Positions 5,080-8,257 are shown, numbered from the stretch's first letter. The stretch: 64,000 nt of DNA from Pseudomonadota bacterium (GCA_026390435.1 JAPLFY010000105.1:606-64605); one strand, 5' to 3'. A program made the numbers and translations. The notes: generated by a model from the letters alone, not told the origin.

Positions 5080-5562
5080 TTACCAATTAAAGCCATCGGA
5101 TTGGAAGTCATACATGATACTGGCCATGGCTGACGCTTTTCTAAGGTAGCTTCTGCTTTTCTCGAAGTCGCGCCGATAATAGTACACAGGAGAAACTTGC
5201 AAGTAGAGTTGGTTCCAGCGGACTCCAACGCTGGCTCCGTAATACAGTCCTGATTCCGTGACGGTGTAGTCCACTCCGGTCTGGAGTCCGAAGTAAGGGG
5301 ATAGATGCTGTCCCCTTAGAAACTCATATCTCGCTCCAAAATTTGCTGTTCCCGCGGCAATGATTGTACCGAGAGTGCCCTCAGCGAAGAAGTCGTGACC
5401 TAGTGCATACGAGCCTGTGATTGCTGGTATCGGCAAGACACCGCGCATTACTAGGGCGCCGACTCTTGTGGATCCCGGTCCCGCTTCAGCAGCAGGTTGA
5501 TCTTTGCTTAGTGCGGGTGTGTTGATTAGCGATAAAAGAACCGTGAAAAAAAATTTTTTCAT
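5080..5562 (-). CDS. Small exported protein, probable outer-membrane beta-barrel; partner of the upstream protease-PLA2 lipoprotein
   Basis: Signal peptide and alternating amphipathic strands (FGARYEF, PYFGLQTGVDY, YYGASVGVRW). Starts 3 nt after the upstream stop. Confidence 0.6.
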   Translation of the reverse strand: MKKFFFTVLLSLINTPALSKDQPAAEAGPGSTRVGALVMRGVLPIPAITGSYALGHDFFAEGTLGTIIAAGTANFGARYEFLRGQHLSPYFGLQTGVDYTVTESGLYYGASVGVRWNQLYLQVSPVYYYRRDFEKSRSYLRKASAMASIMYDFQSDGFNW

Positions 5563-5565
5563 TGA

Positions 5566-6636
5566 TTAGCACTTTCCATTTGAGCATGAATTATACGCAT
5601 CAACACCTGCGTTTTTTACTGCTTCGTAATATACATTTGAAACAACTGCGATGCATTCACCGCGCGTCACAATAAATAAATCATTGTTAAATGTGCTTTC
5701 GCAAATTTTTCTTATGTCTTCGCGCAAATCTTTGTCGCATTTCTCTCTTCCCAGTTGTTGGCTATAGCACTGATCATGTGCTTGACATGCGGGCGTGAAA
5801 TTCGCCACTAGTCCTGGGAGGCCCCAGTTGTCTGGCACCAGATAGGACGTGAAGCCAGTTCCGCAAGCGCCCGCTCTATCGGCCCACATAGGATAACCAG
5901 TCACGCCAATCGGAAGTGGGACTAGAATCTGATCGGTTCTAAGGTGCGGGGTTCTTACGTGTTGCGAGCGTACGTGAGGCCATTCGAGTTTTATGGACTT
6001 ATCTAAGACACTAATGTCTACCGCGTCGTCGTGAAGCTGTCTCGTATTGAGTGCAAAATTCATAGTTTCATTTAAGTTTGTTCCGACATGAATGCCTACT
6101 ATCTTTTCGTCTTGTAAAATCGGCGCGCCTGAAAACTTAGGTATTGTATCGCATTGGTGTGCGAAAGCTGCTGCTCCCTGTAACTGATATGAGACGCTGC
6201 AACTAGTAGTGACCTGCCGATTTTTTTGAATATCAATTGCTAGCAAAGTTAGTGGCTTTTTGTTGTCCAAAGCGCCAAATTCAAAATGTTTAGGGAAGCT
6301 CTGGTCTAACTTGTAGACGACAAAATCTTTCTTATCATCGAGCATCGTAATGTCTGACACATTAGCTTTTTGTCCATTTGCACTGAGAAAGTAAAACCCG
6401 ACGAAACTGTTAGGGTCGGGACTCGCGCAATGTAGGGCGGTTGCCACCTCGGATTTGCTGATCAAGGATGCATTGCATTGGCGGGCGTCAGTGATCAAAA
6501 GGCCTAGGCGTTCGTCTGCATTTTTCGACAGAACGAGGTCATTTTGTCCAATAATGGCTTTAACTTTACCACTATTGGTGCTTTTACAGGACATTATAAA
6601 AAACAAGCAACATAGTATCGTGAAACGTCGCATCAT
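5566..6636 (-). CDS. Lipoprotein: trypsin-like (V8/S1B-type) serine protease plus C-terminal phospholipase A2-like domain
   Basis: Lipobox IMSC; triad TALHC, KDF, CDTIPKFSG; C-terminal ACQAHDQCY...KCD...YYEAV sPLA2-type motif. Confidence 0.8.
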   Translation of the reverse strand: MMRRFTILCCLFFIMSCKSTNSGKVKAIIGQNDLVLSKNADERLGLLITDARQCNASLISKSEVATALHCASPDPNSFVGFYFLSANGQKANVSDITMLDDKKDFVVYKLDQSFPKHFEFGALDNKKPLTLLAIDIQKNRQVTTSCSVSYQLQGAAAFAHQCDTIPKFSGAPILQDEKIVGIHVGTNLNETMNFALNTRQLHDDAVDISVLDKSIKLEWPHVRSQHVRTPHLRTDQILVPLPIGVTGYPMWADRAGACGTGFTSYLVPDNWGLPGLVANFTPACQAHDQCYSQQLGREKCDKDLREDIRKICESTFNNDLFIVTRGECIAVVSNVYYEAVKNAGVDAYNSCSNGKC

Positions 6637-6677
6637 GACCCCGGTCCTTTCTGAGCTAATTTAATGATTTGCTGATT

Positions 6678-7247
6678 TTAAAACCAGTAGACTGCTTGTA
6701 TTTTCGGCAATTGCCAACGAGAGTAGGGTCTGCTTGCGTTATAAGTTGTCCTGCGCTCACCGGTTGCGAATAGGCTTTCTTCAGTTTCATGGGATCGGCC
6801 CAACCTATAGCCGATCCACGACAAGTCAATGGAGAAATTATCATTGAGAAACCAGCGGCTGCCCGTTGAGACCTCTGTGCTACGGGAATCCATTTTTGAC
6901 TTTAAAGAAACTCTAGGAATCTGTTGATGAACAGTTGGATCGGAGTCTATGTATTCGGATGTTGTCCAATTGATGCCGCCAGAAACATACCAGGCACCTT
7001 CCGTTGGGTAAAATTTTGCTAACGCTGAGGCATCGCGGTTCATTGCCTTCTCAGACCCTATGCCTGAGTTGCCTCCACTTAGGGTGATTGCATATGTTAA
7101 GGAGTTGTTGGTCAGCCATTCGGCACCAAATTTGTAACCTATAAAAGGTGTTAATTGAACTCCGGCTAGGACTCCAATGGCCGCATTCGCTGATGTCCCG
7201 CCTAATATAGCTACTAGCATTAGGGCTTTGATCAGAATAAATTTCAT
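6678..7247 (-). CDS. Exported protein, probable outer-membrane beta-barrel
   Basis: Signal peptide MKFILIKALMLVAILGGTSANA, amphipathic strands, C-terminal aromatic signature KIQAVYWF. Confidence 0.7.
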   Translation of the reverse strand: MKFILIKALMLVAILGGTSANAAIGVLAGVQLTPFIGYKFGAEWLTNNSLTYAITLSGGNSGIGSEKAMNRDASALAKFYPTEGAWYVSGGINWTTSEYIDSDPTVHQQIPRVSLKSKMDSRSTEVSTGSRWFLNDNFSIDLSWIGYRLGRSHETEESLFATGERRTTYNASRPYSRWQLPKIQAVYWF

Positions 7248-7270
7248 ACTTACCATTTCTAGGCTCTGAT

Positions 7271-8257
7271 TCAGGAACAAACTGTAACCTTTTCAGTTGA
7301 GCAGCCTATGGACCCACCTTGTGTACATTTGATATTTGAATTGCAGGGGCCTTTGCTCACGCTGCCGCTGCCGAAGCGATTGGTACATTGCAAAGTCGCT
7401 TTGTACTGCGCATCAATTAAGACTGAATTGCCTTGGTATTCGTGACAACGGTTGCTTTCACCGTCAGTGCAGCAGTAAGTCTCTTGTGCAGCGTCATTAT
7501 CCCAAACTGGGCGGCTGGGATCTAGATCTGATACATCGACCCGCACATGGGGCGTTCTGACGTGCGGTGAGCGTGTGTGTGGCCATTCTAGTTCTGCGTC
7601 TACTTCAAGATCAGTTATTATATGGTTCTTGTTTTGAACATCAGATATGTTAAGTGCGTAATTGACTTGTCTTTTGGGGTTGTACCCAATGTGCATTCCA
7701 ACCATTTTACCGTTTTGAATCAGGGCTCCACCCGAAAACCCTTTAATCGAATCACAGTTATGTTCAAACGCTGAGTTCTGTTCTAATTTTCGAACGGGTT
7801 TGCAGCTTGTGGTTTTGAGATCTCTGGTCTGGGGATCGTAGGCAAATAATCTGAGCGGCTGGTTCAGGTCAAAAATGCCTATATCGTAATGAAAATTGAA
7901 CACTGCGGCAGTAGTGTAAATTACAAAGTCCTTTGTCGAATCGAGAAAAAAAATATCGACAATTTTTGTTTGGGCACTTGCCGCAGAGACAGTCATAGCG
8001 GCAAAGGACTGCGGATCATCTCCTATGCAGTGAAGGGCGGCTGCAACTTGCCGCGGGCCCACAATCGTCGCATTGCAGTTATGTTGCCCGTTGTTCAACA
8101 ACACGTGCAAGTCGCGGTTTGTGGGTGGCGGCACTGTTTGAAGAGTGTTGATACCCAGTATAGCTCGCGTTTCAGAGGCCCCTTGGCCGCCCGCGGTCTT
8201 ACAGGAGTGAGCTACTGAATTCGCAACGAATATAAGCAAAATTTTCGCTAGCTTCAT
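7271..8257 (-). CDS. Lipoprotein: trypsin-like (V8/S1B-type) serine protease plus C-terminal 8-Cys domain
   Basis: Lipobox AHSC; triad AALHC, KDF, CDSIKGFSG; paralog of 5566..6636 up to the shared linker. Confidence 0.8.
   Translation of the reverse strand: MKLAKILLIFVANSVAHSCKTAGGQGASETRAILGINTLQTVPPPTNRDLHVLLNNGQHNCNATIVGPRQVAAALHCIGDDPQSFAAMTVSAASAQTKIVDIFFLDSTKDFVIYTTAAVFNFHYDIGIFDLNQPLRLFAYDPQTRDLKTTSCKPVRKLEQNSAFEHNCDSIKGFSGGALIQNGKMVGMHIGYNPKRQVNYALNISDVQNKNHIITDLEVDAELEWPHTRSPHVRTPHVRVDVSDLDPSRPVWDNDAAQETYCCTDGESNRCHEYQGNSVLIDAQYKATLQCTNRFGSGSVSKGPCNSNIKCTQGGSIGCSTEKVTVCS

Follow-up and report, generated by a model that had tools for sequence, protein, structure and literature searches.

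What is gained by two neighboring genes whose products begin alike, as lipid-anchored serine proteases, and end in unrelated domains, each gene being followed by its own small exported protein? The question is raised by positions 5080 to 8257 of a stretch of 64,000 nucleotides (nt) from a Pseudomonadota bacterium (GCA_026390435.1 JAPLFY010000105.1:606-64605), called here the window. The answer we consider probable, with a chance somewhat better than even, is that the four genes form a tandem of two cassettes that belong to a small family of polymorphic toxins in the Oligoflexia, in which a lipoprotein–protease–linker–toxin precursor is accompanied by a barrel-like partner that is likely its immunity protein. 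The polymorphic-toxin reading, which is drawn from sequence comparisons, is well supported because relatives with the same lipobox–protease module carry established toxin ends.

The four open reading frames (ORFs) all lie on the minus strand, in two tandem units. In the first unit, gene A (7271..8257) encodes a lipoprotein precursor of 328 residues in which the signal peptide (with Cys19) is followed by an S1 protease domain, then by a PH(V/T)R linker and a tail with eight Cys residues (8-Cys tail); it is followed by bA (6678..7247), encoding an exported-like protein of 189 residues. In the second unit, gene B (5566..6636) encodes a lipoprotein precursor of 356 residues that is built likewise, from a signal peptide (Cys17), the S1 protease domain, a linker of PH.R type, and a tail resembling phospholipase A2 (PLA2); it is followed by bB (5080..5562), encoding an exported-like protein of 160 residues. 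The intergenic gaps are 23 nt between A and bA (with the bA start ATG at 7247), 41 nt between bA and B, and 3 nt between B and bB. An alternative TTG start of bA at 7280 would give 200 residues and overlap A. A promoter and terminator scan found no terminator-like site in any gap between the four genes (and fewer sites than in shuffled sequences). The initial annotation had described four co-oriented, tightly spaced genes in two units, and ORF positions, strand, and gaps confirm it.

The N-terminal parts of A and B are homologous (38% identity over 225 residues, E 1e-50 by BLASTP), and no similarity is left after the linker, the alignment ending in ...LEWPH[TV]RS[PQ]HVRTPH[VL]R[VT]D. The lipobox Cys (C19 in A) stands behind a hydrophobic stretch and does not vary among the 34 family members aligned, several of which have a noncanonical lipobox (AHSC in A, for example). 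In the same alignment, the catalytic H76 and S175 (A numbering) are invariant and D110 is kept in at least 90% of the sequences; alignments place the counterparts in B at H69, D104, and S169. The lipobox and the homologous serine protease with an intact His/Asp/Ser triad, which had been noticed in both proteins, are therefore confirmed by the A/B identity and by the conservation in the 34 sequences. On Pfam, A reaches 25.0 bits on the Trypsin profile (cut-off 20.6) and B stays below the cut-off on both Trypsin and Trypsin_2; the latter profile is matched by 62 of 81 family representatives (E ≤ 1e-3). Among solved structures, a glutamyl endopeptidase (1p3c, E 1e-6) is the closest to the protease, followed by other bacterial and viral S1 enzymes. 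Because the triad is conserved, the protease activity is, as judged from the alignment, under selection. Two possible marks of its specificity and activation were considered. An Asp six residues before the catalytic Ser was rejected as a sign of Arg specificity because 1p3c, which is Glu-specific, has the same "DT" motif. For a zymogen-type cut ahead of the conserved (A/S)I(I/L)G, the evidence does not suffice for a decision: the motif follows a basic residue in 19 of the 39 cases that could be read.

The linker of A (LEWPHTRSPHVRTPHVRVD, 7535..7591, minus strand, residues 223–241) contains three PH.R units and is the place where similarity to B stops; it is a candidate processing site. The linker of B (LEWPHVRSQHVRTPHLRTD) occupies 5932..5988 on the minus strand (residues 217–235). 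Units of the H.R type were detected with a regular expression in 23 of 50 members examined (the linker being unplaced in 8 of them). Their terminal Arg is constant and their copy number variable, with 1 to 6 units counted per protein, and such Arg-ending tandem units would fit tandem cleavage sites. The "same unusual linker" of the initial annotation is thus shared by A and B and is not family-wide: the PH.R linker is a trait of the A/B clade.

After the linker, the two proteins diverge completely, as had been stated and as the end of the BLASTP alignment confirms. The tail of A (7274..7534, minus strand, residues 242–328) has eight Cys within its last 67 residues and is a candidate envelope-acting toxin. 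It has no Pfam match, and a search of the PDB returned only Filamin-B at chance level (E 0.49). An ortholog of A (P0002, 74% identical) retains this tail. The tail of B (5569..5931, minus strand, residues 236–356) resembles secreted PLA2, with a CG.G loop and a C..HD.CY motif. Its Pfam matches are PLA2G12 (PF06951; E 1.2e-4, 22.5 bits vs. a cut-off of 34) and Phospholip_A2_3 (PF09056; E 3.5e-3, 18.3 bits vs. a cut-off of 29.4). Because both profiles stay below their curated cut-offs, we call the tail PLA2-like and do not file it as a member of a PLA2 family. A profile built from three B-type tails, in which the catalytic His-Asp motif C..HD.CY is invariant, matched only three chains in the PDB, all of them PLA2 (8k1w_A, E 0.0037; 7ygk_A, E 0.0062; 4aup_A, E 0.18), and was aligned over the C..HD.Y motif of 8k1w_A and 7ygk_A. 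The best PLA2G12 match among the relatives has E 3.7e-9.

The window's genome (4.28 Mb in 153 contigs, 95% complete) holds eight paralogs of the protease-bearing gene, designated A to H. All eight have a hydrophobic N-terminus ending in Cys, a protease domain, and differing tails, of at least six unrelated types: the 8-Cys tail of A, the PLA2-like tail of B, Gly/Ala/Cys-rich hydrophobic peptides of 60–90 residues in C, D, E, F, and G, and, in H, a glycine zipper, a coiled coil, and a Cys-rich end, in this order. Six of the paralogs are then followed by a small exported protein of 160–216 residues with a hydrophobic or aromatic last residue; the contig of H ends 125 nt past the gene.

Beyond this genome, a HMMER search over 1.84 billion representative proteins gave 126 matches with E ≤ 1e-3, of which 45 have E ≤ 1e-10 and 9 have E ≤ 1e-30. 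At E ≤ 1e-25, the family profile matches 23 of the 131 genomes sampled for the class to which Oligoflexus belongs, among them 7 of the 11 other genomes of the window's family, 9 genomes from two other families of the order, and 6 genomes from two families of the same class outside the order. The protein family was found only in Oligoflexia, a lineage identified by the presence of Oligoflexus tunisiensis Shr3 among the genomes of the order. A word-index search with residues 1–240 of B matched only B itself, and a related-locus search with protein A in genome contigs confirmed no relative.

Forty of the 126 representatives were read for their tails, and the Pfam scan took in 81. Many tail types occur among the 40. 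In the 81, the tail families are PLA2G12 (two representatives) and, with one representative each, Phospholip_A2_3, CdiA_C, DUF637, Gly-zipper_Omp (4.8e-5), and Astacin; no nonpeptidase Pfam family is present in more than two, and most tails appear to match no Pfam family. Some of the ends are those of established toxins. The protein P0006 (1005 residues) starts with a lipobox and a trypsin-like domain, continues with a row of six to seven (S/A)PH(V/I)R units and then a coiled coil, and ends in DUF637 (3.3e-9) and CdiA_C (5.3e-17, above the cut-off). In a second protein (L066, 872 residues), PT-TG (8e-5) and an LHH nuclease (5.3e-25) form the end, and the gene is directly followed by a SUKH_5 gene (2e-6) and then by a DUF7716 gene. 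Two further members, from a metagenome-assembled genome of an Oligoflexus species (L064) and from the cultivated Oligoflexus tunisiensis Shr3 of the same order (L065, of nuclease type), have a common head and middle and differ in their last ~100 residues: the end of L065 is DUF6883 (2.2e-14), and that of L064 contains DGHHRY and has no Pfam match. The stop of L064 is met by the start of a 155-residue ORF that belongs to no known family and lacks a signal-peptide-like N-terminus. The architecture of polymorphic toxins, which had been proposed from the two units alone, is borne out by the eight paralogs with unrelated tails, by the CdiA_C and LHH ends (the latter with SUKH_5), and by the comparison of L064 with L065; the C-termini are clearly not invariant and vary among paralogs and orthologs.

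The second gene of each unit had been described as a small exported beta-barrel-like protein. Its downstream position, a signal-peptide-like N-terminus, and an aromatic end (...VYWF in bA, ...GFNW in bB) all stand; the barrel fold is, for bA and bB, indicated indirectly. The two proteins show no mutual similarity, and neither has a Pfam match at E ≤ 1; on NCBIfam, bA reaches only OmpA at E 0.057, far below the cut-off. Their nearest clusters in a language-model atlas are outer-membrane barrel proteins (0.98 for bA, 0.97 for bB, values that serve as leads only), and the cluster of bB is labeled "outer membrane protein beta-barrel domain." Strand amphipathicity gives a weak signal (z 1.7 for bA and 1.8 for bB vs. 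−0.9 to 1.9 for protease-domain controls) and separates the partners as a whole only weakly (−0.6 to 4.3 vs. the same range). Ten further partners have no meaningful Pfam match (TMEM18 at chance level, E 0.15). A structural indication comes from the partner type shared by E and F: a model based on an alignment of 10 rows has eight long antiparallel strands (predicted local distance difference test [pLDDT] 66, predicted template-modeling score [pTM] 0.59), and nearly all entries of the Foldseek list for the E-type partner are outer-membrane barrels, among them OmpX (1qj9; probability 1.00, template-modeling [TM] score 0.54). "Barrel-like" is thus a reasonable fit for the class of partners, and for bA and bB themselves it is predicted. 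In the other 94 genomes of the order, bA has weak matches in seven (best E 6.8e-5, 21%–31% identity, over parts only) and bB a single one (E 0.0015, 26% over 74 residues). No orphan copies of partners or tails were found in the genome by tblastn, each partner being present once, beside its own toxin.

Does the partner follow the head or the tail of its neighbor? In 17 curated cassettes with a readable partner, protease core, tail, and partner were each compared all against all (136 pairs). With the composition-corrected comparison, tail and partner are both homologous in 13 pairs, the tail only in 7, the partner only in 1, and neither in 115 (without correction, 22 tail-only pairs were obtained, mostly of low complexity). 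Where partners are homologous, the tails thus nearly always are as well. The proteases of D and F are 48% identical, and their tails and partners are unrelated; those of E and F are 25% identical, with tails that are 45% and partners that are 42% identical. Because these two comparisons contrast with the protease identities, tail and partner are seen, at the level of sequence, to move together and independently of the head. The type of downstream gene also follows the type of tail: nuclease-tailed members have no barrel gene and carry, in the same position, a nonexported gene (SUKH_5 after L066, the 155-residue ORF after L064), SUKH_5 being a recognized immunity family; for the window's partners, the immunity role is a predicted one. 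Immunity or sequestration, which the initial annotation had left open against export, is favored for the partner because partners vary with and track the tails, because the nuclease-tailed members have a nonexported gene in that place, and because each partner occurs once, beside its toxin.

The explanation that survives best against this one, and that we still hold to be unlikely, is that the barrel is no immunity protein and acts as a dedicated outer-membrane partner that inserts, exposes, or hands over the tail, in the manner of Slam and the type XI secretion system (T11SS), of autotransporters, or of two-partner systems. Every envelope-type tail among the 17 cassettes does adjoin a small exported protein, the marked hydrophobicity of the Gly/Ala/Cys-rich tails would call for a shield in the periplasm, immunity through an outer-membrane barrel is, to our knowledge, without precedent, and a partner that holds the tail could combine presentation with self-protection. 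A common export machine, however, would be expected to be conserved, whereas the partners of different cassettes are mutually unrelated; mature partners of ~140–190 residues, with eight strands in the one model, are small for a protein channel; and the gene is missing where the same head carries a nuclease tail. The cassettes resemble Slam/T11SS in the outer-membrane barrel gene placed beside a cognate lipoprotein gene. Slam barrels are large DUF560 proteins. The partners here are of 160–216 residues, mutually unrelated, and without a meaningful Pfam match (bA and bB, with none at E ≤ 1, as well as the ten others), no DUF560 or other translocator family being detected. Membership in Slam/T11SS fails on both size and family.

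Under the reading as toxin and immunity cassettes, the first gene would encode a precursor made of a signal peptide ending in a lipidated Cys, a protease of chymotrypsin fold, a tandem (S/T)PH(V/I)R linker, and an exchangeable toxin, and the second a small Sec-exported, beta-rich, barrel-like protein that matches the type of the tail and not the protease. The precursor, to go by its lipobox, would be exported by Sec, lipidated, and sorted to the outer membrane. The built-in protease would then cut the linker, in cis or between neighboring molecules, and free the tail, as the order of the domains, the triad, and the Arg-ending linker units suggest; self-cleavage at the linker is a plausible inference, and toxin release would be the most economical role of the protease because it sits between the lipid anchor and the toxin. 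The freed tail would attack the envelope of a competitor or prey, that of B by hydrolysis of phospholipids, and the barrel would protect the producer by neutralizing or sequestering the cognate tail in its envelope.

Several observations weigh against this reading. Concerning the partner, an AlphaFold2 model of bB made without an alignment has pLDDT 34 and is unusable, the evidence for a barrel fold of bA and bB being indirect only, and all Foldseek matches of the E-type partner model have E > 0.05. We know of no outer-membrane barrel that serves as an immunity protein, and the known immunity to glycine-zipper or ionophore toxins is located in the inner membrane. A partner shielding a very hydrophobic tail could, moreover, serve its presentation too. 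The covariation is imperfect: a cassette of another genome (G006a, L020) pairs an E/F-type tail with an unrelated partner and accounts for 5 of the 7 tail-only pairs. In cassette F, the partner is upstream and a recombinase gene downstream. The 17 cassettes were picked for a readable partner, and the related genomes among them are not independent. As for release, linker cleavage is a prediction from domain order, triad, and linker units; the Asp of the "CDT" motif, found also in the Glu-specific 1p3c, gives no argument for a cut after Arg; and the PH.R linker is missing in many members, which have Cys-rich or Pro-rich linkers instead, and therefore a general release would need other sites. A complex prediction for the E-type tail (residues 243–337) with its partner (residues 24–179), from a cassette outside the window, gave a score of 0.00 and was counted neither way.

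The protease could also be the effector itself, or a second toxin that degrades envelope proteins of the target, the lipoprotein acting uncleaved. The strong conservation of the triad would agree with this, as would a linker motif that is not universal, and, in the main text of the 2012 survey of polymorphic toxins (Zhang et al. 2012, PMC3482391), some peptidase domains are read as toxins in certain contexts. According to the same text, the constant N-terminus of polymorphic toxins serves trafficking or processing and the variable C-terminus is the toxin (PMC3482391); some of the variable ends are whole toxin domains able to stand alone, and one of these (LHH) is followed by the recognized immunity family SUKH_5; and a nuclease must leave its lipid anchor to reach the cytoplasm. 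On these points we regard an uncleaved protease effector as decidedly unlikely. That the genes encode ordinary lipoprotein proteases of nutrition or predation, with tails that bind substrates or membranes and small outer-membrane neighbors that are unrelated housekeeping proteins, is very improbable: trypsin-like lipoproteins are common in the order (46 of 95 genomes match the family profile at E ≤ 1e-10, many of them generically) and most tails and all partners are without a known family, but the same head also bears CdiA_C, LHH (with SUKH_5), PLA2, and the pre-toxin domains DUF637 and PT-TG; proteases that are close to each other have exchanged tails; no partner has a second copy or stands anywhere other than next to its toxin; and, in the order's 94 other genomes, the matches of bA and bB are weak and partial.

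A third gene, overlooked in the initial annotation, recurs with the cassettes. It lies at 8397..9671 on the plus strand, divergent from A, and encodes an exported protein of 424 residues with two CXXCH motifs, at residues 260 and 340, in which C260, C263, H264, C340, C343, and H344 are invariant. All three copies in the window's genome are beside cassettes, as are 9 of 10 full-length family copies (within ~1.5 kb of a protease–toxin gene); the tenth (G004:C2) has no protease match on its contig. The typical operon in the relatives has the order two-CXXCH gene, protease–toxin gene, barrel gene, and the exported two-CXXCH protein is a frequent accessory of the cassettes. It has no PDB match, either as a single sequence or as a profile, and NCBIfam gave no significant match for it nor for A, B, bA, or bB; only seven clusters out of 5.8 billion match it, one of them bearing a cytochrome c Pfam domain. 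Tentatively, and with more doubt than confidence, the three components may be seen as a toxin route of the Oligoflexia's own, in which a lipid-anchored serine protease would carry the toxin to the outer membrane and free it at the repeat linker, a new class of small outer-membrane barrel immunity proteins would capture the cognate tail of envelope-acting toxins, and an exported two-haem protein would act as gate or maturation factor of the system. In two of its three copies, the two-CXXCH gene is followed by a YceI-like gene: in the window directly, at 9644..10297 on the plus strand (Pfam YceI, E 2.3e-20), and a second time at C46:30795-31388, after cassette C.

How do these cassettes compare with described systems? 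The closest are the SitA lipoprotein toxins of myxobacteria. SitA/SitI of Myxococcus are described as lipoprotein polymorphic toxins delivered by TraA/B outer membrane exchange (PMC5562445, PMC8546572), and the release of SitA from its lipid anchor by proteolysis is, in the latter account, proposed only (PMC8546572). In both cases, a lipobox-anchored precursor has a constant N-terminal module and a polymorphic C-terminal toxin, the operon also contains a cognate gene, and each genome has many paralogs; nuclease ends are also common to both, here in relatives of the window's proteins. As far as these accounts describe SitA, its escort domains are of ~375 residues, fall into six nonhomologous families, and are not presented as proteases, whereas the module here is an S1 protease of ~220 residues whose triad is intact. 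Unlike those of SitA, the window's tails are of envelope type (PLA2-like, Cys-rich) and not nucleases, and the neighbor is an exported barrel-like protein instead of a cytoplasmic SitI.

The template given in the main text of the 2012 survey is a trafficking domain, a pre-toxin domain in some cases, a releasing peptidase, a C-terminal toxin, and, next in line, an immunity gene (Zhang et al. 2012, PMC3482391). The relatives of A and B share with the surveyed toxins the DUF637, PT-TG, CdiA_C, LHH, and SUKH domains (PMC3482391). The releasing peptidases listed there are the HINT, ZU5, PrsW, caspase, MCF1-SHE, PVC metallopeptidase, and papain-like domains, and the word "trypsin" is absent from the main text (PMC3482391, the supplements being outside this statement). 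Unlike in those systems, the peptidase here is N-terminal, right behind the lipobox, and is apparently the trafficking module as well (PMC3482391). The same text describes the APD1/APD2 prodomains of Amoebophilus, which have a lipobox and extremely polymorphic C-termini (PMC3482391). They share with the present family the signal peptide and lipobox, a conserved N-terminal domain, polymorphic C-termini, and an expansion in one lineage; unlike it, they are not described there as proteases, are predicted to act on eukaryotic-host targets, and have no linked barrel gene in the description (PMC3482391).

A last comparison concerns the hydrophobic tails. The CdzC/CdzD proteins of Caulobacter are described as glycine-zipper, contact-dependent bacteriocins on the surface of the producer, and the Gly/Ala/Cys-rich tails of paralogs D–H and of many relatives resemble these small, hydrophobic, Gly-rich proteins (PMC5380434). 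Tails A and B of the window are, unlike CdzC/CdzD, not of this Gly-rich type. Cdz proteins use a type I system for their export and are not known as lipoprotein–protease fusions, and their immunity protein is in the inner membrane. We found in the literature, including the main text of the 2012 survey (PMC3482391), no description of a lipoprotein–S1-protease toxin family or of a barrel immunity protein, which agrees with the earlier impression that the combination is not a described system.

Polymorphic toxins are defined by the way they travel, and new constant modules have so far pointed to new routes of delivery or processing. For the release of a toxin from its lipid anchor, this family offers a built-in candidate that can be mutated, namely the catalytic Ser and the repeat linker. 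The tails without a Pfam family may be new envelope-acting toxins, and the small barrels, if they neutralize toxins, would represent a type of immunity protein that we do not know from elsewhere. The Oligoflexia are little studied, and the cultivated O. tunisiensis Shr3 with its nuclease-type member makes experiments possible.

The members omitted from the 17 cassettes are of several sorts. Paralog H, L028, and L074 stop at the end of a contig or locus. L062, L067, and L068 (G008:C131, G006:C98, and G007:C426; ~500–556 residues) have a duplicated Cys-rich end ("HGNNGTVSC..FC") and no evident downstream partner; L062, the one scanned of the three, gave no Pfam match for this end. L034 and L071 are followed by a second trypsin-like lipoprotein; in L071 (G059:C8, 971..2839), a Cys-rich-tailed member precedes this gene, which is tail-less, and there is no barrel gene. 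L076 was omitted for the 398-residue lipoprotein of no known family (G007:C420, 572..1768, minus strand) that follows a toxin with a glycine zipper and coiled-coil tail; three other toxins of this tail type stop at contig or locus edges. L069 is followed by a 93-residue protein with membrane-like hydrophobic stretches (by eye). Also omitted were the nuclease-type long forms, the weak or divergent L037, L039, L041–L061, and L063, and L072, seen later to have the same type of 213-residue partner as L038.

Two paralogs show local irregularities. Directly downstream of paralog F is a gene that looks, by eye, like that of a serine recombinase (G000 contig C113:256-978, L005), and because the partner is upstream instead of downstream and this gene adjoins, a rearrangement at F is suggested. 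Paralog C (G000 contig C46:27881-28809, L003) has a frameshift near 28700 when compared with the near-identical P0014 of 309 residues, the rest of its tail being in another frame; it is either a pseudogene or an assembly error.

For the four-gene block of the window, an assembly artefact is excluded because a single contig of 3622 nt, from a run of another study, covers window positions 4646..8238 and differs at 29 places; we take the block to be genuine and stable. Near-identical DNA was found in 20 runs from 17 studies among the matches listed (freshwater, sediment, and wetland metagenomes), one run being a possible source of the window; none of these listed runs is recorded as RNA. In the contigs of four runs, no alternative tail or partner was present at the locus in the parts covered. 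In the contigs of three of these four, T at window position 6636 is replaced by G; because this abolishes the first ATG of B, the true start of B is probably the second Met, at 6633. The G+C content of the block is 0.43–0.46 vs. 0.51–0.57 in its flanks, and at both edges (window ~4600–4730 and ~8238–8335) the contigs of several runs break or continue into unlike sequence. Because of these breaks and the low G+C content, the block may be an island with variable junctions. Its left edge lies inside a truncated copy of an ATPase-like gene (4245..4985) that resembles, by eye, 2545..3870.

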